This document shows, piece after piece, positions 9,461 to 40,379 of a DNA stretch of 64,000 bases (the first letter of the stretch is position 1; the number at the start of each line of letters is the position of its first letter). Source of the DNA: Escherichia coli (GTDB taxonomy: Bacteria; Pseudomonadota; Gammaproteobacteria; Enterobacterales; Enterobacteriaceae); the NCBI RefSeq assembly GCF_030013205.1, contig NZ_CP122648.1; one strand, 5' to 3'. Both the position numbers and the translations under genes were made by a program. The notes under the pieces were generated by a model, which had not been told where the DNA came from, made no database searches, and was given only the letters and a program-made list of their open reading frames with translations.

Positions 9461-9721
9461 GCACCGCGATAGTCAATGAGACTGGGCATCTCGTAATCTA
9501 TGGCAAACATCACTTCAGTTCTTTCTCATCGGGTGATGAAAACGCACTTCAGTCTGAAAGGAATATGAAAATGAGATCAACAGACACTCTATTTTATGAC
9601 TCTGGGTAAAATGGATTGAGTAAGCGATATTAGACTGGCCCCCTGAATCTCCAGACAACCAGTATCACTTAAATAAGTGATAGTCTTAATACTAGTTTTT
9701 AGACTAGTCATTGGAGAACAG

Positions 9722-10087
9722 ATGATTGATGTCTTAGGGCCGGAGAAACGCAGACGGCGTACCACACAGGAAAAGATCGCAATTGTTCAGCAGAGCTTTG
9801 AACCGGGGATGACGGTCTCCCTCGTTGCCCGGCAACATGGTGTAGCAGCCAGCCAGTTATTTCTCTGGCGTAAGCAATACCAGGAAGGAAGTCTTACTGC
9901 TGTCGCCGCCGGAGAACAGGTTGTTCCTGCCTCTGAACTTGCTGCCGCCATGAAGCAGATTAAAGAACTCCAGCGCCTGCTCGGCAAGAAAACGATGGAA
10001 AATGAACTCCTCAAAGAAGCCGTTGAATATGGACGGGCAAAAAAGTGGATAGCGCACGCGCCCTTATTGCCCGGGGATGGGGAGTAA
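9722..10087 (+). CDS. insC: IS2 transposase OrfA (InsC)
   Basis: [56 protein letters not shown]... Confidence 0.9.
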
Positions 10088-10950
10088 GCTTAGTCAGCCG
10101 TTGTCTCCGGGTGTCGCGTGCGCAGTTGCACGTCATTCTCAGACGAACCGATGACTGGATGGATGGCCGCCGCAGTCGTCACACTGATGATACGGATGTG
10201 CTTCTCCGTATACACCATGTTATCGGAGAGCTGCCCACGTATGGTTATCGTCGGGTATGGGCGCTGCTTCGCAGACAGGCAGAACTTGATGGTATGCCTG
10301 CGATCAATGCCAAACGTGTTTACCGGATCATGCGCCAGAATGCGCTGTTGCTTGAGCGAAAACCTGCTGTACCGCCATCGAAACGGGCACATACAGGCAG
10401 AGTGGCCGTGAAAGAAAGCAATCAGCGATGGTGCTCTGACGGGTTCGAGTTCTGCTGTGATAACGGAGAGAGACTGCGTGTCACGTTCGCGCTGGACTGC
10501 TGTGATCGTGAGGCACTGCACTGGGCGGTGACTACCGGCGGCTTCAACAGTGAAACAGTACAGGACGTCATGCTGGGAGCGGTGGAACGCCGCTTCGGCA
10601 ACGATCTTCCGTCGTCTCCAGTGGAGTGGCTGACGGATAATGGTTCATGCTACCGGGCTAATGAAACACGCCAGTTCGCCCGGATGTTGGGACTTGAACC
10701 GAAGAACACGGCGGTGCGGAGTCCGGAGAGTAACGGAATAGCAGAGAGCTTCGTGAAAACGATAAAGCGTGACTACATCAGTATCATGCCCAAACCAGAC
10801 GGGTTAACGGCAGCAAAGAACCTTGCAGAGGCGTTCGAGCATTATAACGAATGGCATCCGCATAGTGCGCTGGGTTATCGCTCGCCACGGGAATATCTGC
10901 GGCAGCGGGCCTGTAATGGGTTAAGTGATAACAGATGTCTGGAAATATAG
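10045..10950 (+). CDS. insD: IS2 transposase OrfB (InsD), 301 aa, overlapping orfA as in the IS3 family
   Basis: [37 protein letters not shown]...DNRCLEI with DDE-type region. Confidence 0.9.
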
Positions 10951-11952: not shown

Positions 11953-13059
11953 ATGAATAAAACAATAACGGCGCTTACTATCATAATGGCTTCATTTGCC
12001 GCAAACGCGTCTGTATTACCGGAAACTCCTGTGCCATTTAAAAGTGGTACCGGAGCAATTGATAACGACACTGTCTACATTGGTTTAGGTAGCGCAGGTA
12101 CGGCATGGTACAAGCTGGATACACAGGCCAAAGATAAAAGATGGACAGCGTTAGCTGCATTCCCTGGCGGACCGAGAGATCAAGCAACCTCTGCATTTAT
12201 TGATGGCAATCTGTATGTGTTTGGCGGCATTGGCAAAAACAGCGAGGGCTTGACTCAGGTATTTAATGACGTACACAAATACAACCCCAAAACCAATAGC
12301 TGGGTTAAATTGATGTCGCACGCGCCGATGGGCATGGCGGGCCATGTGACTTTTGTACACAACGGCAAGGCTTATGTTACTGGCGGTGTTAACCAGAATA
12401 TCTTCAATGGCTATTTTGAAGATCTCAACGAAGCTGGAAAAGATTCAACCGCTATAGATAAAATCAACGCCTACTATTTTGACAAAAAAGCAGAAGATTA
12501 TTTCTTCAATAAGTTTCTGTTGTCTTTTGATCCCTCAACACAGCAATGGAGTTACGCTGGCGAATCTCCCTGGTACGGAACGGCTGGTGCGGCGGTTGTG
12601 AATAAAGGTGATAAAACCTGGCTTATTAATGGCGAAGCCAAACCAGGATTGCGAACGGATGCCGTATTTGAACTTGACTTCACCGGTGATAATTTAAAAT
12701 GGAATAAGCTTGATCCCGTCTCATCACCAGATGGCGTCGCTGGCGGTTTTGCGGGGATAAGCAATGATTCTCTTATATTTGCTGGAGGGGCCGGATTCAA
12801 AGGTTCACGAGAAAATTACCAGAACGGTAAGAACTATGCGCATGAAGGCCTGAAAAAATCATATAGCGTTGATATTCATCTTTGGTATAACGGGAAATGG
12901 GATAAATCGGGTGAATTATCGCAAGGTCGGGCCTACGGAGTATCATTGCCCTGGAATAATAGTTTATTAATTATTGGCGGTGAAACTGCAGGCGGCAAAG
13001 CAGTGATGGATTCAGTTTTAATTTCTGTGAAGGATAATAAAGTCACAGTACAAAACTAA
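11953..13059 (+). CDS. nanM: NanM N-acetylneuraminate mutarotase (Kelch-repeat periplasmic protein, 368 aa)
   Basis: ATG at 11953 gives MNKTITALTIIMASFAANASVLPETPVPFKSGTG...; track ORF 11845-13059 is an upstream extension of the same frame. Confidence 0.88.
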   Translation: MNKTITALTIIMASFAANASVLPETPVPFKSGTGAIDNDTVYIGLGSAGTAWYKLDTQAKDKRWTALAAFPGGPRDQATSAFIDGNLYVFGGIGKNSEGLTQVFNDVHKYNPKTNSWVKLMSHAPMGMAGHVTFVHNGKAYVTGGVNQNIFNGYFEDLNEAGKDSTAIDKINAYYFDKKAEDYFFNKFLLSFDPSTQQWSYAGESPWYGTAGAAVVNKGDKTWLINGEAKPGLRTDAVFELDFTGDNLKWNKLDPVSSPDGVAGGFAGISNDSLIFAGGAGFKGSRENYQNGKNYAHEGLKKSYSVDIHLWYNGKWDKSGELSQGRAYGVSLPWNNSLLIIGGETAGGKAVMDSVLISVKDNKVTVQN

Positions 13060-13064
13060 CGCTT

Positions 13065-13088
13065 CAGGGCCCCGGTAAAGGGGCCCTG
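13065..13088 (+). terminator. GC-rich 9-bp-stem hairpin between nanM and nanS (CAGGGCCCC-GGTAAA-GGGGCCCTG)
   Basis: Perfect inverted repeat immediately after the nanM stop; may be an intra-operon attenuator or REP-like hairpin. Confidence 0.4.
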
Positions 13089-13123
13089 CTATCAATTTGT
13101 CATTTCAATTACGCGAAATTTAT

Positions 13124-14104
13124 ATGAACGCAATAATATCGCCTGATTATTACTATATTCTTACCGTTGCTGGTCAGTCTAATGCCATGGCGTATGGCGA
13201 AGGACTGCCATTACCGGACAGGGAAGATGCGCCTCATCCCAGAATTAAACAATTAGCGAGATTTGCGCATACGCATCCCGGAGGCCCGTCATGTCACTTT
13301 AACGACATTATTCCACTGACTCACTGCCCACACGATGTTCAGGATATGCAGGGTTATCACCATCCTCTGGCAACGAATCATCAAACACAGTACGGCACCG
13401 TTGGCCAGGCACTGCATATAGCACGGAAATTACTGCCCTTTATTCCTGATAATGCAGGGGTTCTCATCGTTCCGTGTTGCCGTGGCGGATCGGCTTTTAC
13501 CGCGGGCAGCGAAGGAACATATTCAGAACGGCACGGAGCCAGCCATGATGCTTGTCGTTGGGGAACGGATACTCCGCTATACCAGGATTTAGTCAGCAGA
13601 ACGCGAGCCGCACTGGCAAAAAATCCGCATAACAAATTCCTCGGCGTATGCTGGATGCAAGGCGAATTTGACTTAATGACCAGTGACTACGCGTCACACC
13701 CTCAACACTTTAATCATATGGTTGAAGCCTTTCGTAGGGATCTAAAACAATACCATTCTCAGCTTAATAATATTACTGACGCACCGTGGTTTTGCGGCGA
13801 TACCACCTGGTACTGGAAAGAAAATTTCCCTCATGCGTATGAAGTTATTTATGGCAATTATCAAAATAATGTTTTAGCCAATATTATTTTCGTCGACTTC
13901 CAGCAACAAGGTGAAAGAGGACTGACGAACGCGCCTGATGAAGACCCGGACGATTTAAGCACGGGATATTACGGTTCAGCGTACCGGTCACCGGAGAACT
14001 GGACGACGGCACTGCGAAGCAGTCATTTCAGCACGGCAGCCCGTCGGGGGATTATTTCTGACAAGTTTGTAGAAGCAATTTTGCAGTTTTGGCGCGAAAG
14101 GTGA
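13124..14104 (+). CDS. nanS: NanS 9-O-acetyl-N-acetylneuraminate esterase (326 aa)
   Basis: ATG at 13124 gives MNAIISPDYYYILTVAGQSNAMAYGEGLPLP...; follows nanM. Confidence 0.88.
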   Translation: MNAIISPDYYYILTVAGQSNAMAYGEGLPLPDREDAPHPRIKQLARFAHTHPGGPSCHFNDIIPLTHCPHDVQDMQGYHHPLATNHQTQYGTVGQALHIARKLLPFIPDNAGVLIVPCCRGGSAFTAGSEGTYSERHGASHDACRWGTDTPLYQDLVSRTRAALAKNPHNKFLGVCWMQGEFDLMTSDYASHPQHFNHMVEAFRRDLKQYHSQLNNITDAPWFCGDTTWYWKENFPHAYEVIYGNYQNNVLANIIFVDFQQQGERGLTNAPDEDPDDLSTGYYGSAYRSPENWTTALRSSHFSTAARRGIISDKFVEAILQFWRER

Positions 14105-14111
14105 GCGTTCA

Positions 14112-14762
14112 TTAATTTGATTTATTCGCATCCATCAGCGCTTTTAACTGCTCCGGCGTAAACGGTGGTTTGCGTCGGTGCAACATCGCATGGCAATTAG
14201 GGTACACAGGCAGCAAATCATTAACTGGATCCAGCTGGTAATCCTCTTTAATGGCTGACAGCGGCACCAGGTGATGCACATGGATAAAGCCTTCAGCGAT
14301 ATCACCATAGATCTTCACCAGATCAACACCGCATACGTTGCACTGGCATCCATGATGTTCGACCGCTTTATCTCGGGCCTTTTTATCGCGTTCATAGCGG
14401 TTTACTGTCACCTTTATCGCCGCACCTTCAAGGTATGTCTCCTGCGACGGCAACTCATCCGGGAACAGAACGTCGGCTATGGGAGCCGCAGCGGCTTTAT
14501 CCAGATGAATATGAAATCCCTGCTCTATGAGTAGCTTGACACATTTAGATTTTATTCCGCCGGTGAAATCCGCAGGGGTAAATTGCGTCCCCGTCATCAA
14601 TGTCGCTGCGATGCCAGCAATCGCCTTCGAGGGGTAACGTCGGCCATGATATTCAATCTCATACAACCGCGCAGGCTGGAACTGATGAGTTTCTCCCGCA
14701 TCCCATAAATGGATAGCTTCGATGATATACCGCCGCGGAAGATGATCAGGGAGTTTATTCAT
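14112..14762 (-). CDS. HNH endonuclease-domain protein (216 aa), possibly restriction or defence nuclease
   Basis: C-terminal motif ...CQCNVCGVDLVKIYGDIAEGFIHVHHLVPLS...YPNCHAMLH (Cys pairs and HNH His/Asn residues); N-terminal domain unassigned. Confidence 0.7.
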   Translation of the reverse strand: MNKLPDHLPRRYIIEAIHLWDAGETHQFQPARLYEIEYHGRRYPSKAIAGIAATLMTGTQFTPADFTGGIKSKCVKLLIEQGFHIHLDKAAAAPIADVLFPDELPSQETYLEGAAIKVTVNRYERDKKARDKAVEHHGCQCNVCGVDLVKIYGDIAEGFIHVHHLVPLSAIKEDYQLDPVNDLLPVYPNCHAMLHRRKPPFTPEQLKALMDANKSN

Positions 14763-14841
14763 GGAGAATGTCCTTATACGTTCTCAGAACAGGCAGCAAA
14801 AAAACAAATGAGATCAAGGTAATATATCTTCACTTGCAGGC

Positions 14842-15066
14842 TTGAACAGCAGAAAATTTGCGAGCATGATCGCAATTATTTCACTGCCAGGGATATCAAT
14901 AGCTTCCAGTAAATCGCTACAGCAGGCAATTGCCAATATAAAAATCTGGCACAAGGGTGAACAGCGCGCGCCGCATAAGCCATTGTTATTGCTATACGTA
15001 TTAGCGGGATACCTGAATGGACATCCGCGCCTTTTCGATTATTGTACCTCTGAAGACAGAAGATAA
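14842..15066 (+). CDS. Small hypothetical ORF (74 aa, TTG start), possibly a gene fragment
   Basis: Only an ORF call, divergent from the HNH gene; no recognisable domain. Confidence 0.2.
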   Translation: MNSRKFASMIAIISLPGISIASSKSLQQAIANIKIWHKGEQRAPHKPLLLLYVLAGYLNGHPRLFDYCTSEDRR

Positions 15067-15099
15067 AAGTGAAAACAGGTGTGATGTGGTTGTGACGGG

Positions 15100-15591
15100 T
15101 TAAAGCAGACCATGTTCGGCAAAGGAGAAAACCTGGCTGCCACCGACTATCAGATGGTCCGGCACCCGGATATCCACCAGGCCCAGTGCCTGTACCAGAC
15201 GTTCCGTGATAAGGCGGTCTGCCTTGCTGGGTGTGACTTCACCGGACGGGTGATTGTGTGCCAGCACCACAGCAGCGGCATTGTGATACAGGGCGCGTTT
15301 AATCACTTCACGGGGATGGACTTCCGTGCGGTTGATGGTGCCGGTGAAGAGGGTTTCACCGGCAATCAGCTGATTCTGGTTGTTCAGATACAGCACCCGG
15401 AACTCTTCACGCTCCAGTCCCGCCATGTTCAGAATCAGCCATTCTCGTGCCGCACGGGTGGAGGTGAAGGCCACGCCGGGTTCATGAAGATGGCGGTCCA
15501 GGGTTTTCAGGGCCCGTTGAATGAGGCTGCGCTCGCCGGGCGTCATCTCTCCGGGCAGAAAGGAAAGCTGTTGCATTGTACTTCTCTCCAT
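15100..15591 (-). CDS. RadC-like JAB/MPN-domain protein (163 aa), CP4-type prophage gene
   Basis: JAMM motif ...VVLAHNHPSGEVTPSKADRLITERL...; start codon abuts the stop of the upstream antirestriction gene. Confidence 0.85.
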   Translation of the reverse strand: MERSTMQQLSFLPGEMTPGERSLIQRALKTLDRHLHEPGVAFTSTRAAREWLILNMAGLEREEFRVLYLNNQNQLIAGETLFTGTINRTEVHPREVIKRALYHNAAAVVLAHNHPSGEVTPSKADRLITERLVQALGLVDIRVPDHLIVGGSQVFSFAEHGLL

Positions 15592-16077
15592 TCAGTCGAT
15601 GATGCGCATAATGGCGCTGCATTCCGGATGCTGCAGGGCGTAATCCCGCAGCCGGTAATAATGGACCGTCATGGCATAACACTCCGTACGACAGGCATGA
15701 TGACTGTACGTCATCAGACAGGCAGCAATGCCGGCAGCTTCCGGACTCATTTCAGCGCGGTTACCGTTCATGGCATTGAACAGTACCCATGTTTCGTCAT
15801 CATCGTCATCCGGTTCGGGTGCCATAAATGCCCCGCCGTTGTTCAGGGTGTACAGATTCCAGATACCACCGCAGTAGTCTTCACACAGACGGTCCATCCA
15901 GCCGAAGACACGGGGCTCCAGGGTCACCCACTGTGGAATGAGGCCAAAGTGCTGCGGCCAGAAGCTGATGCGCTGTTCATCAGGGACGAGGGTGGCAACC
16001 AACTGAGGCTGGTCATTCCCTGATGCAGCGGTTACGGAAACAGAAGATGTGGTGGAATTATGTGAAATGGTTTTCAT
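15592..16077 (-). CDS. KlcA/ArdB-family antirestriction protein (161 aa)
   Basis: Family motif FWPQHFG...CEDYCGGIWNLYTLNNGGAFMAP. Confidence 0.85.
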   Translation of the reverse strand: MKTISHNSTTSSVSVTAASGNDQPQLVATLVPDEQRISFWPQHFGLIPQWVTLEPRVFGWMDRLCEDYCGGIWNLYTLNNGGAFMAPEPDDDDDETWVLFNAMNGNRAEMSPEAAGIAACLMTYSHHACRTECYAMTVHYYRLRDYALQHPECSAIMRIID

Positions 16078-16131
16078 GAAATGACTCCTTAAAGGACAAA
16101 TAAATGCGTGGTTTTCAGGGTAATGGCTGAA

Positions 16132-16950
16132 TCAGCGCAGGCTCTCCAGCAGGGTTTCCGCCATCACCCACAATGCGCGGTTGAGCTTAATGTCAGTGTC
16201 AATGCTGTGAATGGCACGGGTATGGATACGTTTTCCTTTAGCGCTGCGACCTGAAATTCCGCCTTTCAGCATATTCTCCTGAATGGTCTGATAAGCACTC
16301 CACAGGTCCTTACCGTAATCCTCCCGGCGTCGTGGCGTCAGAATGTCGGCGGTGGTGACGGGCTGATGTTCGTCACCATAACGGTAAGTCAGTGCCGCCT
16401 GTGCCAGCGCCTGGCGTGCCGGTGGCGGCAGAATCAGCGACTGCATGGCATCACGCTTTTCCTCAATCCGGTCAAACACGCCCACCACCTCGTAAGCCCC
16501 TTCAATGACTCTGTCCACCACATTTCCCCGGTGCGGAACACGCACTTCCCCCAGAGACTGACCACAGACGCATCCGTTCTGGCAGACGAACCTGAAGTAA
16601 CCCGGCAGCATCTGGTAGCTGGAGGTACCGTCATGAGAGTTGAGCAGAATAATTTCAGGGACATGTTCTCCGTTTATCTCTCCGGCCCGCCGCAGACGCA
16701 GCATGTGTTTTGTGTATCCCCGGCGGCCCGGGTCGCGCACACGGGTCTGGCAGGCGAAGAATGGCTGAAAGCCTTCCCGCTGCAGGCTTTCCAGTACGGT
16801 GATGGTGGGGATGTACGTATAGTTCTGGCTTCGGGACGTGTGTTTATCTTCCCCGAAAATCCCCGGCACATAGTGCATCAGTTCTTCGTGTGTCAGCGGA
16901 CGGTCACGGCGTATCTGGTTCGCATAACCAAAACGACTGGCTAGTCGCAT
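16132..16950 (-). CDS. DUF932-family protein (YafZ/YfjQ-like, 272 aa), cryptic-prophage gene
   Basis: 272-aa ORF immediately upstream of the antirestriction-radC pair, as in CP4-type cryptic prophages. Confidence 0.6.
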   Translation of the reverse strand: MRLASRFGYANQIRRDRPLTHEELMHYVPGIFGEDKHTSRSQNYTYIPTITVLESLQREGFQPFFACQTRVRDPGRRGYTKHMLRLRRAGEINGEHVPEIILLNSHDGTSSYQMLPGYFRFVCQNGCVCGQSLGEVRVPHRGNVVDRVIEGAYEVVGVFDRIEEKRDAMQSLILPPPARQALAQAALTYRYGDEHQPVTTADILTPRRREDYGKDLWSAYQTIQENMLKGGISGRSAKGKRIHTRAIHSIDTDIKLNRALWVMAETLLESLR

Positions 16951-17310
16951 AATTTGCTCCTTATCGGTGGTTAAGATTTACTGGTGTAATAAATGAAAAA
17001 GCCACGTCTCCCGGAGAAGACGCGGCCTGATGGGTGAAATGAATGACGTTTATTGTCTGAGAAGACCGTCACTGGCGAGCCGCGTATTAAGCACCTTTCC
17101 GGCATCGGGTTCAGAATTCCGGCAGCGCCAGCGTCGCTGACCTTCCGCGTTGCGGATAACCCGACGGAAATGCATTCCCGGGTCATCCTGGATAAACACA
17201 TTGCGGTAAGCGGTTATGACAGCAACCGCCTGCCCGTATGAGAAAGATCCTTCAGCCAGGACATACTCTGTGTAACCCGGCATATCTGTAAGCGACTCGT
17301 CAGAACCGTA

Positions 17311-17772
17311 TTGATATTTACTGAGAGCTCAGATCAACTTTCCAGGGCAACAGATCGCGTAACGGAAGCTGCCTGCTGGGCTCATGCCCGCCGAAAGATC
17401 CACGATGTGCACGTCCGCATCCCGTCAGCACTGACGGAAGAAGCCCTGGAGCAGATCGGTCAGTTGTACGCCATAGAGGCGGATATAAGGGGAATGCCGG
17501 CAGAGCAGCGGCTTGCTGAACGTCAGCGAAAAACGAAACCGCTGTTGAAATCCCTGGAAAGCTGGTTGCGTGAAAAGATGAAGACCCTGTTCTTCGGCTC
17601 TGGCCATGGTGGTGAGCGGGGAGCGCTACTGTACAGCCTGATCGGGACGTGCAAACTGAATGACGTGGATCCAGAAAGCTACCTTCGCCATGTGCCTGGC
17701 GTCATAGCAGACTGGCCGGTCAACCGGGTCAGCGAACTGCTTCCGTGGCGCATAGCACTGCCAGCTGAATAA
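17311..17772 (+). pseudogene. IS66-family transposase (TnpC) internal/C-terminal fragment
   Basis: ...[16 protein letters not shown]...YAIEADIRG...[29 protein letters not shown]...ELLPW matches IS66 TnpC blocks, but ORF is only 153 aa with no full-length frame. Confidence 0.7.
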
Positions 17773-18010
17773 CACATCCCCGTCAATACGGCCCTCGCTG
17801 TACGCTTACTTTTGTTCGGACTGCTTATGGCCTTTTTCCACTGGTGTAGCAGGAAAGTTAACCGGCTGCCACCATGAGATGACGTGTAAACCGTGCAGGC
17901 ATGTTTTCACGTGGTGACGCTTTCATTGGGGGTCTACGCCGGAACCCCAATATTGTTCACATACATGAATTTGAAAAACTAAGCGATACTGCTGTCCGTA
18001 CCTTATAAAC

Positions 18011-19384
18011 TTATTTCAACGCTTCCGGCAGCGTCACAATCCACAGTTCACTGTCAGACTCCGGTTTCTCCAGTGGCTTCACTCTGAGGGTCGTTTCAAC
18101 CTGCTTGTCGTCAAGCGTCAGCTTTCCTTCCGCGTTCACCCGATAATCCTTGAATGTCTTGCCCTCGACCGGATGTTGCATCGCCACCTTCACGCCAAAG
18201 TCGTTATCGTTCGCCACCGCCAGCGTTTTGCTGTCGATCAGCGCCAACCCTTCAGCCTTCTCCTGCTGCCAGCCCAAGGAGCGCAGATCAACAACCTGCG
18301 TTTTCTGCGCAAGGGTAATGCCGCGCTGTGACAGGGTTTTCTCATCATCAAACTCCGGATACTCACCCGGCTTGTCGAAGCCTGACAGGTCGCTCGCCTT
18401 ATTGAGATCGACCTCGTAAATCAGGTTACGCATTCTGTTGTTTTTATCTCTTCCCTGTTCGATCAGCAGGATGTGCTGGTTATCGAGCGCCACGATGTCT
18501 CCGATTTTAGCGTCGCTGTTTTTGCTGTAGGCCGCGCTGTCGATAGGATAACCGTACATCGCGGTTTTTCCGCTTGCCGGATCGAAGCTCACCAGACGCG
18601 TAAACAGCGCCTTTTTCTTGCTCTTAGCGTCGATATCCAGCGTACTTTGCACGGCGACAATAATACGCCCGTCCGGCATACGGGTGAGGCCTTCAAAGCC
18701 GCGGTTCGCCTGACGCCATTTGAGGATATTTGGCAAACCGCCCGCAATCGCTTTTTCCCCTTCCGCCGCCTGCGGACCGTGGATTGCCAGGATTTTCCCT
18801 TTACTGTCGATGTTAATCAGGAACGGGCCATACTCATCGCACAGCCAGTAACCTCCTTTACCATCCGGAGTGATCCCTTCCGTATCCAGCCCGCGATTAT
18901 CCCCCTTCAGTCTATGTAACGTGTCGCTGAAGGCCACTTCATTGGTGGAGCCAATCACGTCGCTTGCCAGCGGCAGACCGTTGATCGCGCCTTTATCGTC
19001 ATGCAGAGGACGGGGATCGATGGCCTCCGCTTTGCCGTTTTGTACACGAATCGTCATCAGCAGCGGCGCGAAATCTGGCGTAACGAAAATTTTAGTTTCG
19101 TTTTTCCCCTCTTTCGGTGAATCCGCGTTCGGACCGCGATCGGTAATGGTTGCGAATGTCAGGGCATCGCCCTGTTTACCGGTGAACAGCAGGCCAGAAC
19201 CTATCCCAACCGGAAGGCCGTTCGGGAATGCACTGGCAAATGCGCCGGCGTAGTTCACGTGCGTGCCTTCTGGAAAACTGACGACATAGCGCTCAGCCGT
19301 AGGTTGTGCCGCCAGGGCAGAGAAAGAGAGCGTACAACCGATTAGCACGGGAATAATTTTTCTTTTCATATTGTTAGCATCCAT
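18011..19384 (-). CDS. Secreted hypothetical protein (457 aa), possibly phytase-like esterase / beta-propeller family
   Basis: N-terminal signal peptide MKRKIIPVLIGCTLSFSALAAQP; long soluble domain; family assignment tentative. Confidence 0.55.
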   Translation of the reverse strand: MDANNMKRKIIPVLIGCTLSFSALAAQPTAERYVVSFPEGTHVNYAGAFASAFPNGLPVGIGSGLLFTGKQGDALTFATITDRGPNADSPKEGKNETKIFVTPDFAPLLMTIRVQNGKAEAIDPRPLHDDKGAINGLPLASDVIGSTNEVAFSDTLHRLKGDNRGLDTEGITPDGKGGYWLCDEYGPFLINIDSKGKILAIHGPQAAEGEKAIAGGLPNILKWRQANRGFEGLTRMPDGRIIVAVQSTLDIDAKSKKKALFTRLVSFDPASGKTAMYGYPIDSAAYSKNSDAKIGDIVALDNQHILLIEQGRDKNNRMRNLIYEVDLNKASDLSGFDKPGEYPEFDDEKTLSQRGITLAQKTQVVDLRSLGWQQEKAEGLALIDSKTLAVANDNDFGVKVAMQHPVEGKTFKDYRVNAEGKLTLDDKQVETTLRVKPLEKPESDSELWIVTLPEALK

Positions 19385-19639
19385 AAAGTGAAGATCACAC
19401 TACACCATAAAGAAGAAACGAGTCAGGAAAATGACATCGAATGGCAACATGCGCGGGCCTGAGGCCAAAGAAATGTAAAACACTGTTGTTATTTGTAACA
19501 ACGGAAACATTTACGGAAATTATTTGTCTTTCTTCGTGATCAAAAATGCTGTGTCTTGTTGGATTGGAGTGATGAGGGCTGCGTTTAGGAAACGCCCTAT
19601 ATTGTACGGTTGCATTATCGCGGTAGGGGTAATGCACGT

Positions 19640-34744: not shown

Positions 34745-35590
34745 TTATTCATTTAAAGATTCAAGAAATGTCCAGCCTTTATGAGTAACATAATACATTT
34801 GTCCTTTTGCCCCTCTTTCAATCACAAAATCAAAGGATAACAGTTCGTTAAGTGCGCCCTCCCAACGGGCTACCTCTCTAGCCGAACTTCCACCAAAGGA
34901 TTGATTTCCCGCTTGAATATCCGTGCCACCTAAATGCCTTATCACATAAATTGTTCCGCTATCATCGACACATGCTAATTTCAGCAAACTGAGTGCATCG
35001 GCGGACAAATTACTTTCTGGCAAAGATTGACTTGTATTCGCATCAGGAGAATTGTTAATGGTAGATATAAGAGAAGACAAATAAGGGCTACTAGAAATAA
35101 TTATCGAAAGTTGCCTACGGACTTTTTCTTTGAAATCAGATAAGTCATTAAAAGACTCTATCAATCCCTTTTGCATGCACTCAGTTTTGAACAATTTAAG
35201 AGACTCATATTGTTCTCTATCAAGGCTTTCAGGGGCAACAGGCTTTGAGGAAAAGTAAATCATTGCCGGTTTTCCCGCATTCAAATGACGGTGGATTTCT
35301 TCGACTGTTCCGCTGGCCTCGTTCCCAGTCGGTGAGCCTAGACGAGTCCAAAACACACCGATTAATAAATCACAATCTACTAATAATCTTTGATTAATCA
35401 ACTCCTGAGGCCTAACTCCTAATTCGGGTGATGTATGAGTTTCCCATCCAATTGGTGTCAACATTACTTTTGAACGAGCTGAATTTATATCATTCCACTC
35501 ATGGATCATTTCACGAATGACTTGTCTCTCTTCAGCGACATCACCAGGAGAAGCAATCATTACAGGGATAACAGTTGCTGTGTAAGCCAT
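34745..35590 (-). CDS. Two-domain hypothetical protein (281 aa) with DUF4062-like N-terminal domain
   Basis: N-terminus VIPVMIASPGDVAEERQVIREMI...VDCDLLIGVFWTRLGSPTGNEASGTVEEIHRHLNAGKPAMIYFSS matches the DUF4062 pattern (S..D..EER ... CD..I.....R.G ... SGT..E ... GKP); C-terminal ~120 aa unassigned; start 13 nt after recombinase stop. Confidence 0.65.
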   Translation of the reverse strand: MAYTATVIPVMIASPGDVAEERQVIREMIHEWNDINSARSKVMLTPIGWETHTSPELGVRPQELINQRLLVDCDLLIGVFWTRLGSPTGNEASGTVEEIHRHLNAGKPAMIYFSSKPVAPESLDREQYESLKLFKTECMQKGLIESFNDLSDFKEKVRRQLSIIISSSPYLSSLISTINNSPDANTSQSLPESNLSADALSLLKLACVDDSGTIYVIRHLGGTDIQAGNQSFGGSSAREVARWEGALNELLSFDFVIERGAKGQMYYVTHKGWTFLESLNE

Positions 35591-35603
35591 AAACTCTCCA
35601 TAT

Positions 35604-36164
35604 TCAATCGGTAATAGCTGCTACAGTCGCTCTTGAAACGCCATATTGACGCGCTAACGCACTGATACTCAAACCGCTATTCTTTTTCTCTAAAATCTCT
35701 CTACGGGCTTCTGACGCGATTTTAGGAGGTCTGCCCAATTTCTTACCTTCGGCTTTTGCTCGTGATAGTCCCGCCTGAGTGCGCTCAATCAGCAGATCAC
35801 GCTCCATCTCCGCAACCGCGGCGAGCATAGATAATAGCAACTTCCCAGCGGCAGAAGTGAGATCTGTGTTACCAAGCTGGTGGACAAGAACCTTGATATT
35901 ACGGTCAGCCAGCGCCCTTACCGTTTGCAAGACGTCAATCGCATCACGCCCCAGACGATCAAGCTTCGCTACCACCAACGTTTCACCATCGCGGATTTTA
36001 TTGAGCATTTCAGAAAATGCTTTACGTTGCATTGCCGGAACCTTCCCGCTAACAACATCGGCAAACCAGTAATCAATTTGCCACCCAGCCTGCCCAAGCT
36101 CCAGCCGTTGGTTCTCAGTATCCTGCTGCGATGTCGAAACACGTCCGTAGCCAAAAGTTGCCAT
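35604..36164 (-). CDS. Small serine recombinase, resolvase/invertase family (186 aa)
   Basis: ATG at 36164 with SD GGAG; MATFGYGRVSTSQQDTENQ... (catalytic Ser region), ...VAKLDRLGRD..., C-terminal HTH LSISALARQYGVSRATV. Confidence 0.85.
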   Translation of the reverse strand: MATFGYGRVSTSQQDTENQRLELGQAGWQIDYWFADVVSGKVPAMQRKAFSEMLNKIRDGETLVVAKLDRLGRDAIDVLQTVRALADRNIKVLVHQLGNTDLTSAAGKLLLSMLAAVAEMERDLLIERTQAGLSRAKAEGKKLGRPPKIASEARREILEKKNSGLSISALARQYGVSRATVAAITD

Positions 36165-36186
36165 TGTTATCTCCCCATCTGACCCC

Positions 36187-36284
36187 TGCCAGAAAACGAG
36201 GCCAACATTAGGATGGCCTGCCAGAAAAGCCAAGGCTATTTTTCCAACAGTGTGAAAGCGTGCGATTGGGAGGTGCCAGAAAAC
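36187..36284. repeat. Three direct copies of TGCCAGAAAA(C/G) upstream of the recombinase gene (candidate res-like site / iterons)
   Basis: Copies at 36187-36197, 36219-36229 and 36274-36284, 23-120 bp upstream of the recombinase start. Confidence 0.5.
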
Positions 36285-36356
36285 GGTCGTTTGTTGGCGC
36301 TTAAAACGGATAAAGACATGTTAGGCTGAAACCATCACTTCATAAGGACAACCGAA

Positions 36357-36823
36357 ATGATTAAAGACGCGATTTTTCACCGTGCGGTCAATATCGCTAC
36401 TCGTTATCACGAGTCTGGGACGAATCAAAACCATATGCCCTTTTCATAGGGCTAAACCCTTCATACGCCGATGCTGAGAAGGATGATCGCACCTTGAGCC
36501 GCTGCATATCGTTTGCCAAAAGCAGGGGCTACGGTGGCGTATACATGGCCAACCTGTTCGCATTCGTTCACACCCAGCGACATGAAATGATGAAAGCGTC
36601 TGATCCCATTGGCAAAGATAACGATAGCCACTTGATACGTCTTGTTAGCGGTGCCGGACTGGTTGTCGCCGCATGGGGAAATGAAGGAAGACACCTCAAA
36701 CGCTCAACGACCGTCCGACAGCTATTGCCAGAGAGCACAATGTGCTTCGTCTTAAACGCTACAGGTGAGCCGAAGCACCCTTTGTATATGAAAAACGACA
36801 GTGTTCTCATACCTTTAGGTTAA
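36357..36823 (+). pseudogene. DUF1643-family gene disrupted by a +1 frameshift in a T5 run
   Basis: ATG at 36357 reads MIKDAIFHRAVN... to a stop after 30 codons; the -1 frame continues ...SPCGQYRYSLSRVWDESKPYALFIGLNPSYADAEKDDRTLSRCISFAKSRGYGGVYMANLFAF... (DUF1643 hallmark); frames join if one T of 36373-36377 is removed. Confidence 0.65.
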
Positions 36824-36832
36824 CATCGATAA

Positions 36833-36855
36833 CTGCGTTCAGAATATGAACGCAG
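36833..36855. terminator. Perfect 9-bp-stem palindrome CTGCGTTCA-GAATA-TGAACGCAG after the DUF1643 gene (terminator or operator)
   Basis: Inverted repeat directly downstream of the stop at 36823. Confidence 0.4.
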
Positions 36856-37828
36856 CCATATGATATATATGACTTTTCTTTAAAATGATGGTGTGCTAGC
36901 TTCTCTCCTGACACCTACCTCATGCGGTAAACCGGTCCGGGTAGGTGGAGATCACCGCTGTTTAGCGGAAGACGTCAGGATGGGAACTCTGCGTAACGTT
37001 GATTGTGGTAGGTAGGGCGCGCAAGCGTTTGATGCAGCCAAGCAGAGGGTGAAAGTAGCTATCGGCGGATTCTTGAGTAGCTTCTTTTGCGCATAATGCA
37101 TCTTTCAAGAAAGGTCGTCACACCACGAGGAAGACTTGATCTTCATCTGGCAAGGGGAACCGAGCAACCTACAGGCTATCTTCTCAGATGGCCTTATGGT
37201 TGATATGTCCGGCTTCCCCCCCGAGGAAGGGTTTACATCTTAAAGAACAAGTTATGTTTTAACATTTTTAACAATTACACTTCTCTGCTGTTTGGTGTCT
37301 TATGGCGTTGCCGTCAAAAGTAAACCTGCCGTTTTTACCTCTCCTGCGTAACAACCAAATACGAACCAGAAGCTGCTAACGTTCAACGTGTTCGCGGTGT
37401 AAATGCAGCCAGATAAGTTGGGAGCGAAAAAGTGGATGCCCTAGGTTTGGAAGCGCCCCTCTCAGGCATAGCGTCCGAAAATTTCCACGGCGGCAGGCTT
37501 ATCCTTATAGAGCCAAACAGACTCAAAAGTTAAGAAGCGCGGTAAAGCTTAAAGCTCGCCCAGATTTCTCATTGATTGCTCGAACTCCGCTACGCTTGTT
37601 TCAACTGGCTTCGCCAGTCACTCTATGAGAGCGCCGCGAATTCTGCACCATGATTTCGACTACCTTCTTTAAAACACTCGCCAGAGAGCCTTACAGCGCG
37701 TTTGAACCGCATATCGCAGCTTTTGCTTACGGATGACTGTCTGATTAGCAGTAGCTTCATGGCCCAGTCCGGTTTACTTTATTGCTATCAACAAGGGAGC
37801 CGTCCAGAGGCGACGCGGAGATAATGCT

Positions 37829-38161
37829 TTGAGAACCGTCGAGATACTGCAATACACCTTACGCAAAGGCAGCGGTGCCGCTTTTCACGCCATTATGCAG
37901 GAAATCAGTGTTCCCCTACACCAACGCCACGGGATCGATGTTGTTTCGTTTGGTAACTCTCTGCATGACCCGGACTGCTATTACCTGATTCGCGCCTTTG
38001 TCAGCCCTAAAAGCATGACTACGGTTCTCGACGCTTTTTACGCAAGCGATGACTGGCGCAGCGGCCCGCGCGAAGACATCATTGGCAACATAGAGGCCAG
38101 CATTAAAACAGTGATAAATCTACCATCAGAAAGCGTAGAAGGGCTGCGGGTGCAATCGTAG
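37829..38161 (+). CDS. NIPSNAP/Dabb-like small protein (110 aa, TTG start inferred)
   Basis: ...VEILQYTLRKGSGAAFHAIMQEISVPLHQRHGIDVVSFGNSLHDPDCYYLIRAFVS... resembles NIPSNAP-type ~100-aa proteins; no in-frame ATG upstream. Confidence 0.45.
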   Translation: MRTVEILQYTLRKGSGAAFHAIMQEISVPLHQRHGIDVVSFGNSLHDPDCYYLIRAFVSPKSMTTVLDAFYASDDWRSGPREDIIGNIEASIKTVINLPSESVEGLRVQS

Positions 38162-38293
38162 GTCATCAAGTTTCACCAAACGTGTTTTGAGCGTCTCCAA
38201 ATTCAGCACTATGAAATCCACCACCCTTAATAAAAAACGCGCCAGGAAGCGTCCCAGCGCATTCAAGCATCACTCAACTGAATAGTAACTGAT

Positions 38294-40204
38294 TCAACCT
38301 GTTTGTTTGCCACGCTTTCTTCGCAACGCATCTCTGACAGCATCCAGCCCGTCAGGAATGTTGAATTCCGCTATATCAGGTAACGAAAAATCAATTTTCT
38401 CCACGACTTCAATCATATGAATTGGTTTGAGGTCTTTGCTATATCGCACTTCCGTTTCAGTTTCGCCGCGCACATGCCCAAGTAGCTGCGCTCGTAATTC
38501 TGAGCTAACGCCCTTCTCCTTGAGCAAAGTCGAAACTGAGTGGCGAAAAGAATGGAAAGATTTGCTTCTGTTCCTCTCGAGTTTCAACCGCCCCGCAAGC
38601 AACGATTCATTGAACCATGCGGAAACTGGCCTACCATAGCCTTTTGTTTTATGTGGTTTAAGCTCCGGGAAGAGACGGGTATACCCTGCATCTTTTAAGG
38701 CGTTCACGTAGTCGATGAAACCGAGACTAATCAGCTTTGAATGGAGCGGAATCTTGCGGCGAGCATTAGCATTTTTGAGTTTCTTTCCGCTTTCATTATC
38801 GCTTTCAAGGTTCAAATAATAGACGCCGTCGTCTGCCAGAACATCACTCAGCAGTAACTGAGCGATTTCATTAACTCGCGCCCCCGTCATCAAGCCCAGC
38901 AAAGGTGCCCAATAGTTAAACGGGCAATATTGATGGAATCGCCCTTGCGCATTGCGTTCAACAGTTCCAGCCTCAAACCACGGTAACGAAAAAATCGCTT
39001 TAATTTCATGCGGTTCAAATATGTCAGTGTGATCCTGATCTCGCTCATCTTTATCATCGGATGGAAAAAAGTTTTCGCATGGCGATTTCAGTAGCTTACC
39101 GTCAGCAACAGCCCACTTCATTGCACCATAAATGCCGTTGATATACTTCCTAACGGATTCCTCAGTCATCAATTTATCGCCGCATTCTGCCGCTTTGGCG
39201 ATTAACTGATCCAGCGTTTTCACTCCATATTTAGCTTTGACTAAATTACGGTTTGCTGGGATCGTGCGCAGTTTGCTCTCATAAGCCCGGAGGAAATCGC
39301 GATCAAAATCTTCCAACTGAATGTCACCCATCGCTTCGATCATAAAGCTGAAATAGTTACGGATATCACTTATAGCCGACTCCGATACCTTGCCCTTGCG
39401 CCGATGCTTTAGATATTCAGAGCATAACCACGACAGATTCTTAGTGTAATACTTTCGATTAACATACTCGTTATCGATAGTAGGGGCAGGAGCGGCAAGA
39501 GGCACGGTAGGATGAACACTAGCGACTGGAGGCGTGGTCTTAGCCAGCCAATCAAGCCTTAGGCTTTCTGCATGGACTTTATTGATCAAAAGCGTATCGG
39601 GTTTAATTACCGGCCAACCGGAGGTGAAAAACCAACCGCCTTTAGCGTCGCTTCCGGCAGTTTTGAACACCGAAGCTTCTGAATAACCGTCGCTAATAAT
39701 GTTACGTAAATGTGCTGGTTGCGCAGTGAGTTGCAGATAGCCTTTAGCAACCCCCTCGATACCCTTCTCTTCGCCATAATTAAGAACGTAACTGCCATCA
39801 AGCGGGTCTAGCTCAGCCTCAGAGAGCGCTGCAACATAAAAGCCAGCCTGCCCCGTCGCCAGCCAGAATACGGGCAGATTACGGTTCATCACCGCCTGTA
39901 TTAATTGCGCAACAGGCAACTCAACTGACTGAGCAAAGTTAGAAAGCGAGATCATACCCTCACCAGCAAGCAGCGGGGCGCAGTCACTTAAAGTTCGATA
40001 ATCCAATTGTTCATACTCTTGTAAGGTCTGATACCAGACCGCCAACAGGAGCGCGGACTTCTGCTTTGCTTCATGAAGATCGTGAGTGCCTGTTGAAGTG
40101 TGAATCTCACACTGTCCTGCGTATCGACGAAAACGTTGGGGAATGCTAATGCGGACAACATAAATGCCGCTGGTTCGACGATAGAGTTTATATCGCTGAG
40201 ACAT
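38294..40204 (-). CDS. Large tyrosine recombinase / integrase (636 aa from first ATG; 650 aa from TTG at 40246)
   Basis: C-terminal catalytic region ...GARVNEIAQLLLSDV...HSFRHSVSTLL...LLGH...EVRYSKD (R, H-x-x-R, H, Y); start adjacent to the 3' end of tRNA-Leu, same orientation. Confidence 0.85.
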   Translation of the reverse strand: MSQRYKLYRRTSGIYVVRISIPQRFRRYAGQCEIHTSTGTHDLHEAKQKSALLLAVWYQTLQEYEQLDYRTLSDCAPLLAGEGMISLSNFAQSVELPVAQLIQAVMNRNLPVFWLATGQAGFYVAALSEAELDPLDGSYVLNYGEEKGIEGVAKGYLQLTAQPAHLRNIISDGYSEASVFKTAGSDAKGGWFFTSGWPVIKPDTLLINKVHAESLRLDWLAKTTPPVASVHPTVPLAAPAPTIDNEYVNRKYYTKNLSWLCSEYLKHRRKGKVSESAISDIRNYFSFMIEAMGDIQLEDFDRDFLRAYESKLRTIPANRNLVKAKYGVKTLDQLIAKAAECGDKLMTEESVRKYINGIYGAMKWAVADGKLLKSPCENFFPSDDKDERDQDHTDIFEPHEIKAIFSLPWFEAGTVERNAQGRFHQYCPFNYWAPLLGLMTGARVNEIAQLLLSDVLADDGVYYLNLESDNESGKKLKNANARRKIPLHSKLISLGFIDYVNALKDAGYTRLFPELKPHKTKGYGRPVSAWFNESLLAGRLKLERNRSKSFHSFRHSVSTLLKEKGVSSELRAQLLGHVRGETETEVRYSKDLKPIHMIEVVEKIDFSLPDIAEFNIPDGLDAVRDALRRKRGKQTG

Positions 40205-40294
40205 CGCCTCGTATACCCTTTTGTAAGAGGGGCTACGCGATTTCAAGCAAAATTATGGATTAAATTGTTTTAAAACAACGACTTAGATAAGACT

Positions 40295-40379
40295 TGGTGC
40301 CGAAGGCCGGACTCGAACCGGCACGTATTTCTACGGTTGATTTTGAATCAACTGCGTCTACCGATTTCGCCACTTCGGC
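40295..40379 (-). tRNA. leuX: tRNA-Leu (CAA anticodon), leuX
   Basis: Reverse complement reads GCCGAAGTGGCGAAATCGGTAGACGCAGTTGATTCAAAATCAACCGTAGAAATACGTGCCGGTTCGAGTCCGGCCTTCGGCACCA with long variable arm and CCA end. Confidence 0.95.

Follow-up and report, generated by a model that had tools for sequence, protein, structure and literature searches.

Gene content of the region

The region studied here occupies positions 14,112–17,772 of a 64,000-nt stretch of Escherichia coli DNA (hereafter the window, to which positions refer unless another locus is named), immediately beyond the sialic-acid gene nanS. It opens with a gene encoding a 216-amino-acid (aa) protein with an HNH nuclease motif, which we call head-HNH after the N-terminal domain assigned to it below. 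This gene is followed by a 74-aa open reading frame (ORF), by an arm of a CP4-type prophage and by the C-terminal fragment of a transposase of the insertion sequence (IS) family IS66 (Table 1). Pfam searches confirmed the positions and identities that a preceding sequence-only reading had given for the DUF932, antirestriction (PF03230), RadC/JAB and IS66 ORFs, and added DUF905 (17050–17283), an arm gene absent from its list. The arm therefore has the order DUF905, DUF932, antirestriction, RadC. The IS66 fragment, annotated by the NCBI annotation pipeline (PGAP) as a pseudogene without its N-terminus, is 100% identical to the 3′ end of tnpC in strain N169 and truncates the arm on its far side.

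The HNH protein carries a ScoMcrA-type head domain

The sole Pfam hit of the 216-aa protein was HNH (PF01844), at 17.9 bits and thus under the gathering score of 21.4. Relatives with a cysteine at position 187 that were tested score 26.9–36.0 bits for the same family, with the exception of one locus (L032) at 17.5 bits, and the low score of the window's protein goes with a Cys-to-Tyr change at a zinc ligand that is described below. Residues 123–198 align with the HNH domain of EcoKMcrA. The N-terminal domain, which the sequence-only reading had left unassigned, matches the head domain of ScoMcrA (ScoMcrA_N, PF26345) in both sequence and fold; residues 24–86 align with residues 29–92 of the structure 5zmm (E 1e-3). 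The β-barrel reader folds that had been suggested for this domain (SRA, EVE and PUA) were not found in it, and a kinship of the head with Mrr_N was rejected (hhalign probability 0.1%). AlphaFold models show two compact domains separated by a low-confidence linker (residues 91–124); the predicted local distance difference test score is 79 for the entire protein, against 83 for the head by itself.

A homologue search returned 1,054 relatives, and most of those listed are 207–230 aa long and carry precomputed PF26345 and PF01844 annotations. Relatives with 42–71% identity are found in enterobacteria, Shewanella, Sulfurimonadaceae and others across the Proteobacteria, with both domains kept. The head-domain profile alone matches 2,823 cluster representatives. 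In 104 sampled proteins, this domain is fused to HNH (42 proteins), HNH_2 (23), EVE (14), NOV_C (8), McrB-type AAA_5 (5), SRA (3), DUF3427 (3), AspBHI_N (1) and McrB_N (1); judged from these fusions, the partners of the head are the domain repertoire of Type IV restriction. PADLOC returned only weak mREase_IV matches on the region (E 1e-4).

There was no full-length head-HNH match in 50,697 phage records, in which 8 weak partial matches were found, all to the C-terminal part. Plasmids of Klebsiella and Serratia (records H145–H152) carry distant, 37% identical relatives with the full-length head-HNH layout. Plasmid records with any match numbered 216, including 107 from Klebsiella and 131 predicted to be conjugative; many of the matches in these 216 records may extend over the HNH half only.

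The 74-aa ORF is the stub of a restriction gene

The 74-aa ORF (14842–15066) listed by the sequence-only reading is no gene in its own right. It is the 5′ stub of an SBD-HNH gene (SBD, sulfur-binding domain), lengthened upstream to a TTG. The ORF matches the NCBIfam family NF045808, phosphorothioated DNA-binding restriction endonuclease (E 1.1e-16), over profile positions 2–46 of 284. Its score of 60.9 bits falls short of the at least 180 bits of a full-length protein with SBD plus HNH_2. Full-length proteins from Citrobacter and from an integrative and conjugative element (ICE) matched the stub by tblastn, which found no further SBD-HNH homology downstream of it in any frame. The start codon of the stub (14899–14901) reads ATA in the window and in strain EH41, and ATG in avian pathogenic E. 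coli (APEC) O2-211 and in strain GXU-23-25-310. Compared across these strains, the ATA start is a second decay step that followed the truncation.

In APEC O2-211 an intact 290-aa SBD-HNH gene lies in the same place, divergent from the HNH gene, and its product matches the structure of the ScoMcrA sulfur-binding domain (5zmo, E 6e-8). Citrobacter farmeri has the same divergent arrangement, with a full-length protein carrying precomputed Pfam annotations of DNA-SBD_ScoMcrA and HNH_2. A known E. coli enzyme of this kind, EcoWI (33.4 kDa), alone cuts GpsAAC-modified DNA in vitro and restricts dnd+ plasmids in vivo (PMC7461809). The 136-bp spacer between the HNH gene and the stub is nearly invariant across four E. 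coli loci. A consensus scan of this spacer (14763–14898) recognised no sigma-70 consensus site for the HNH gene, and the overall count of sites was not above that in shuffled sequence.

A 2,907-bp deletion removed the island boundary and the toxin-antitoxin genes

The CP4-type trio had been read as an arm that normally runs on into a CbeA/CbtA-type antitoxin-toxin pair, and this is supported: in EH41 the arm, 99.6% identical, leads into DUF987, YeeU (a CbeA-type antitoxin) and the toxin CbtA. The missing toxin-antitoxin (TA) end was also correctly noted, for the window lacks DUF987, YeeU/CbeA and CbtA, which near-identical relatives possess. The window and EH41 have in common nanS, the HNH protein, the restriction-gene stub and the DUF905, DUF932 and antirestriction proteins, and the RadC/JAB protein of EH41 is near-identical. 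When the window was aligned by blastn to the EH41 locus (L004), positions 13001–15046 corresponded to L004 7897–9942 (99.95% identity) and positions 15045–17289 to L004 12850–15094 (99.6%). These two blocks abut in the window with a 2-bp overlap, and therefore 2,907 bp (L004 9943–12849), within which the TA genes fall, are missing.

Between the stub and radC, EH41 additionally carries a flank of ~490 bp with a small ORF, fragments of a regulator gene and of a DUF4942 gene (DUF4942′), and the genes for DUF957, DUF5983, CbtA, the YeeU antitoxin and DUF987. The segment removed in the window comprises this flank, which is chromosomal, the genes from DUF4942′ to DUF987, and an attR-like copy of the 3′ end of leuX (21 of 23 bases, L004 10433–10454). 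No such copy was found in window positions 14000–19500. Since the attR-like repeat lies within the missing segment, the HNH gene and the stub stand on the chromosomal side of the island boundary. The boundary, the terminal genes of the island and the TA module were thus removed together by a simple deletion. The 74-aa ORF and the HNH gene, which had been thought to replace the TA end, belong to the resident DNA beside nanS and occur whether or not the TA genes do.

The exact 4.2-kb layout of the window was found in 13 of 5,426 complete E. coli genomes, the set to which all E. coli counts below refer, and all 13 came from swine. Two other readings of the junction were rejected. All matches stop at 15046, which could suggest a shared recombination hotspot, but this position is the window's own deletion endpoint; and attR does not lie at the stub junction, as EH41 has the attR-like leuX copy ~490 bp beyond it. 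The old truncation of the SBD-HNH gene, where homology to the intact gene stops (L004 9938), lies only 4 bp from the start of the new deletion (L004 9943), the two corresponding to window 15042–15046. Chance could account for this proximity, as could a locally fragile site; neither an IS end nor an att site was recognised at these positions.

Table 1. Features of the region and its surroundings (window positions; codons refer to the head-HNH gene)
Feature	Position	Strand	Basis or remark
nanS (sialate O-acetylesterase)	13097..14104	+	Pfam SASA, E 1.7e-13; annotated nanS (326 aa) in EH41
29-aa ORF overlapping the HNH stop codon, antisense to the nanS 3′ end	14023..14112	-	PGAP WP_418267963.1
Head-HNH protein, 216 aa	14112..14762	-	WP_001037966.1
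McrA-type HNH module, codons 125-216	14115-14390
Codon 187, TAC (Tyr)	14202..14204	-	where the second CxxC of the structural zinc site has its first Cys
Linker, codons 91-124			low-confidence in model
ScoMcrA-type head domain, codons 1-90	14493-14762
Divergent intergenic region, HNH gene / stub	14763..14898	.	136 bp; AAGGA Shine-Dalgarno-like motif 9 nt before the HNH ATG
Pseudogene stub of EcoWI-like SBD-HNH phosphorothioate-dependent restriction endonuclease, ~48 codons	14899..15046	+	NF045808, tblastn
Deletion junction	15045..15046		2-bp (TA) overlap; blastn flanks of L004 9943-12849
RadC/JAB gene, CP4-type arm	15100..15591	-	Pfam RadC, E 1.5e-44; PGAP: JAB domain protein
Antirestriction protein (PF03230), CP4-type arm	15592..16077	-	Pfam, E 2.3e-37; WP_000849588.1, same in EH41
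DUF932 protein, CP4-type arm	16132..16950	-	Pfam, E 7.4e-52; WP_001234620.1, same in EH41
DUF905 protein, last arm gene retained	17050..17283	-	Pfam, E 9.5e-18; EH41 homology stops at 17289
IS66-family transposase, C-terminal fragment	17311..17772	+	Pfam DDE_Tnp_IS66 (profile positions 144-222 of 284) and IS66_C
tRNA-Leu(CAA) leuX	40295-40379

Active site, zinc site and selection on the HNH gene

The HNH module has all four of its histidines (H163, H164, H191 and H195), which make up the catalytic pair on β1 and the two metal-binding residues on the helix, and each of them is conserved in all 84 homologues compared. The structural zinc site lacks one cysteine: C141, C144 and C190 are intact, giving a first C141-x-x-C144 motif, but the second motif reads Y187-P-N-C190. 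All 27 aligned homologues have a cysteine at position 187, as do all 84 HNH-module ORFs, which came from 80 genomes spread over many phyla. The three other E. coli alleles, two of which adjoin the same truncated neighbour, also encode cysteine there, by TGC or TGT. HNH domains of the McrA type are built round a Zn2+ held by two CxxC motifs (PMC6182155). In TagI, a Cys-to-Ala change at either cysteine of the first CxxC drastically lowers activity; the zinc motif of this enzyme has a CxxD and that of some other HNH enzymes a CxxH, and tyrosine is not among the variants reported (PMC6212794). Because the C187Y change hits a structural zinc ligand, the nuclease encoded in the window is probably weakened or unstable.

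The sequence-only reading had allowed that the protein could be a homing-endonuclease-like fragment lacking an intact active site. Of this, the second part is borne out to the extent that the zinc site is damaged by Y187, while the catalytic histidines are intact.

The ratio of non-synonymous to synonymous substitution rates (dN/dS) among E. coli alleles of the HNH gene is 0.08–0.20, which argues against a dead gene. Between alleles that all lie beside a truncated SBD-HNH neighbour it is 0.13–0.14. As purifying selection persists where the neighbour is truncated, head-HNH appears to work without it.

Evidence that the start of the gene is used comes from K-12. The 29-aa ORF at the HNH stop codon, whose translation begins MNAHLSRQNCK, has its homologue in the tail of the K-12 small protein YthB (MNKLPAHLSRQNCK...). 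YthB (locus L095 4820–4918) joins codons 1–5 of the HNH gene (14748–14762) to the 29-aa ORF lying beyond the HNH stop (14023–14112). K-12 lacks window ~14108–14747, and the endpoints of this gap fall in imperfect 15-nt direct repeats, GATCATCTTCCGCGG and GCTCACCTTTCGCGC, with 11 of 15 positions matching by eye. On this alignment, K-12 YthB is a relic of the HNH gene. YthB was detected by chromosomal tagging in MG1655 (bioRxiv 10.1101/511675); since it reuses the HNH start codon and is detectably made, the HNH start region is translationally active.

Genomic setting

The window covers the E. coli fimB–nanCMS–(leuX island)–fec region, and its positions 13900–18100 are 100% identical to chromosomes of porcine enterotoxigenic E. 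coli and of O139 strains. The gene order is fimB, IS2, nanC, nanM, nanS, the study region, a phytase-like gene, fecIRA, a tyrosine integrase and leuX. As this order runs on to the integrase and leuX (together spanning 38294–40379), the study region is the far end of a leuX-anchored variable island. The leuX site is "hotspot 37", described in a recent review as the most highly occupied E. coli defence hotspot (PMC12707154). The integrase beside leuX, 650 aa long, is a tyrosine recombinase that carries a DUF6538 domain. Within the leuX-proximal part of the island (28750–40246), this recombinase is accompanied by a serine resolvase, a protein with an AbiJ_NTD4 domain, a DUF4062 protein, a helix-turn-helix regulator and IS fragments; genes in this interval are possible further defence genes.

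The spacer between fimB and nanC holds regulatory sites for both genes. An IS2 element (IS3 family) lies in this long intergenic region at 9677–10950, ~260 bp upstream of nanC, so that type 1 fimbrial switching or sialic-acid uptake could change. The nanS gene is 98% identical to the K-12 copy and convergent with the HNH gene, with 7 bp between them. It is annotated by PGAP as an incomplete pseudogene in K_EC180, N169 and K-12 RV308, and as an intact 326-aa gene in EH41. These nanS sequences are ~98–100% identical and the frame is open in the window; the differing annotations look like an annotation inconsistency.

Distribution of the two restriction genes

The HNH gene, together with the stub, adjoins nanS in ~1,227 of the 5,426 genomes. 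A full SBD-HNH gene is present in 1,707, and both genes in 326, leaving ~900 genomes with the HNH gene alone and ~1,380 with SBD-HNH alone. The locus shows reciprocal decay, in which either gene persists without the other. In genomes of the O157:H7 type the SBD-HNH gene is joined directly to nanM, with both nanS and the HNH gene lost.

Three Citrobacter genomes and APEC O2-211 have the divergent pair intact; one Enterobacter genome has it with the SBD gene disrupted. An E. coli ICE carries a second SBD-HNH gene (51% identical) and, 4 kb away from it, a head-HNH paralogue with 57% identity. A variant of the pairing occurs in Enterobacter sp. MGH24 and Citrobacter portucalensis (L025 2264–3908 and L036 8785–10378), where an orthologous SBD-HNH gene (76–79% identical) is followed in tandem by an Mrr_N-HNH gene whose HNH module is 58–59% identical to that of the window. 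These tandem arrangements indicate that the pairing survives both a domain swap and a change of orientation. Both tandem pairs adjoin Type I restriction-modification genes.

Among the 13 distinct head-HNH loci of other species, 8 lack an SBD gene within 10 kb. An obligate partnership with SBD-HNH was rejected, as a hidden Markov model scan of 80 loci placed an SBD gene in the enterobacterial subset only. The pairing of head-HNH with SBD-HNH was not found in the literature searched; the published neighbourhood analysis of EcoWI covered dnd genes only, and the pairing was unaddressed there because dnd genes were all that it sought.

Discussion

We propose that two unrelated decay events meet at position 15046. 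An old two-gene restriction cassette would have stood beside nanS, transcribed divergently from the 136-bp spacer, with one gene for an EcoWI-like SBD-HNH enzyme, whose family cleaves phosphorothioate-modified DNA, and the other for the 216-aa protein in which a ScoMcrA-type head is tied by a flexible linker to an McrA-type HNH module. In the lineage of this strain, the SBD-HNH gene would have been cut to ~48 codons long ago and have lost its ATG later. The leuX-anchored island abutting the cassette would end in the CP4-type arm, from which a later deletion of 2,907 bp took the attR-like repeat, the terminal genes, DUF987, YeeU and CbtA, joining the region downstream of radC to the stub. We give a probability of roughly 0.7 to this explanation as a whole, in which the HNH gene is the surviving half of the cassette, the loss of the TA genes is a separate deletion, and the HNH product is an orphan, probably attenuated Type IV-like nuclease. 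As part of it, the gene would be turning into a pseudogene and would not be a recent gain for defence. Elements of known kinds are decaying here in an ordinary way, and since the TA genes went in an ordinary 2.9-kb deletion, most of what the region shows is routine genome decay.

By analogy with EcoKMcrA, TagI and ScoMcrA, head-HNH would be a dimeric ββα-Me nuclease, with HNH domains that both dimerise and make up the site of DNA cleavage. The head, on its flexible tether, would help to engage DNA, and the protein would act as a nucleotide-independent, Type IV-like (modification-dependent) restriction enzyme. On the same analogies, a nuclease of the Type IV restriction kind is what the gene most likely encodes.

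Several points weigh against parts of this explanation. The head domain of ScoMcrA is small, flexibly attached and of unknown function (PMC6224610), and no activity data or experiments on any head-HNH protein were found in the literature searched. The apparent independence of head-HNH from SBD-HNH is deduced from co-occurrence and selection. As some HNH enzymes tolerate CxxD or CxxH variants of the zinc motif, Y187 might not abolish function. The Y187 allele also seems common: up to 942 genomes match a 61-nt probe across codon 187 at ≥99% identity, a figure that is an upper bound only because some matches are partial and partially deleted genes confound the count. A common allele is not what a strongly deleterious change would predict, and argues against a dead gene. 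The branch leading to the window has 6 non-synonymous against 5 synonymous private changes, a weak and non-significant excess; two of these changes are probably ancestral states, and the numbers are too small to indicate relaxed selection.

These points lead to the strongest of the alternatives, namely that the window's allele is a fully active stand-alone Type IV or defence nuclease, in which Tyr187 or a neighbouring residue substitutes for the cysteine or the zinc site is dispensable. The ORF is intact with all its catalytic histidines, the allele seems widespread, related enzymes have CxxD and CxxH zinc variants, and the translation start is used in K-12. We nevertheless hold this to be unlikely, given that cysteine is absolutely conserved at position 187 in 111 homologues across phyla as well as in the other E. 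coli alleles, that tyrosine is not among the reported variants of the motif, and that the HNH score lies under the Pfam gathering threshold.

A second alternative, which we regard as doubtful and place behind the first, is that head-HNH and SBD-HNH are a ScoMcrA split in two, forming a two-subunit phosphorothioate-dependent restriction system of which the HNH gene in the window is a useless leftover subunit. The two proteins do share out head, SBD and HNH domains that ScoMcrA carries in one chain, the divergent adjacency is kept in E. coli, three Citrobacter genomes and one Enterobacter genome, and the pairing recurs on the ICE and, with Mrr_N-HNH, in MGH24 and C. portucalensis. But EcoWI alone cleaves phosphorothioated DNA in vitro and restricts dnd+ plasmids in vivo, the majority of the distinct loci in other species (8 of 13) have no SBD gene nearby, either gene is kept singly in E. 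coli, and purifying selection acts on the HNH gene beside the truncated neighbour. Moreover, the Type I restriction-modification genes beside the two tandem pairs mean that clustering in defence islands could explain the adjacency.

A broader form of this idea is equally tentative: the enterobacterial EcoWI-type SBD-HNH enzymes would not be solitary but part of a two-gene system with an McrA-type HNH partner, whose N-terminal domain is interchangeable between a ScoMcrA head and Mrr_N. Were this so, two chains would between them hold three of the four domains of ScoMcrA, phosphorothioate-dependent restriction would be tuned, extended or safeguarded by the partner, and the head domain would gain a testable role.

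The proposal of the sequence-only reading, that the HNH gene and the 74-aa ORF are cargo that replaced the TA end of the CP4-type element, is refuted. It has only the physical adjacency in this window in its favour, but WP_001037966.1 and the same stub lie beside nanS in two strains that keep the full TA end, EH41 and EC17CM13. In the former the gene is placed outside the attR-like repeat, and the window differs from EH41 by a clean 2,907-bp deletion. What stands of that proposal is the restriction nature of the nuclease, in keeping with its McrA and Type IV kinship; its acquisition by replacement does not, the gene being outside the island and nanS-adjacent in about 1,227 of the 5,426 genomes. 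Least probable of all is a homing-endonuclease-like selfish element or fragment, for although HNH domains are common in homing endonucleases, the phage records held only the 8 weak C-terminal matches, the gene has a fixed chromosomal position beside nanS, the domain partners of the family are restriction modules, and the full-length two-domain protein is conserved at 42–71% identity across Proteobacteria.

The preferred explanation, an orphan of a decayed cassette beside a separately deleted island arm, illustrates how deletion and point mutation erode a restriction cassette and an island arm at leuX, the busiest defence hotspot of E. coli. To judge from the 2,823 cluster representatives with a head domain, the family of head-HNH proteins is large, and the head is the sole ScoMcrA domain without a known function. 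These proteins recur beside EcoWI-type enzymes, which are used in biotechnology, and since C187 and Y187 both occur naturally, the structural zinc site could be tested on existing alleles. What is modestly new here is the domain assignment, the recurrent pairing of head-HNH or Mrr_N-HNH with EcoWI-type enzymes, and the natural C187Y variant.

Comparison with known systems

ScoMcrA, the Streptomyces coelicolor Type IV endonuclease dependent on phosphorothioate and 5-methylcytosine (PDB 5ZMM), carries its head and SBD in one chain, whereas here the head and an HNH module make up one 216-aa protein, and the SBD and HNH_2 domains make up a separate protein of 290 aa. The SRA domain of ScoMcrA has no counterpart in the two E. 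coli proteins. EcoKMcrA, the McrA of the K-12 element e14 (PDB 6GHC), resembles head-HNH in having a small DNA-facing domain at the N-terminus and an HNH domain at the C-terminus, and its H228, H229, H252 and H256 are equivalent to H163, H164, H191 and H195.

EcoWI and SprMcrA are SBD-HNH phosphorothioate-dependent endonucleases, and the 74-aa ORF is the N-terminus of a member of the same family (NF045808). The intact E. coli orthologue of 290 aa is consistent with the 33.4 kDa of EcoWI, to which it is likened by family profile and size rather than by the sequence of EcoWI itself. Unlike these enzymes, the copy in the window keeps ~48 codons only.

The arms of CP4-44, CP4-57 and CP4-6 in K-12 have the same gene order as the window, DUF905, DUF932, antirestriction and RadC, and K-12 strains match the 55 bp downstream of radC in the window at 98%. 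Unlike those of CP4-44, CP4-57 and CP4-6, the arm in the window is the far end of a leuX-anchored island, with the IS66 fragment cutting it at one end and the 2.9-kb deletion at the other.

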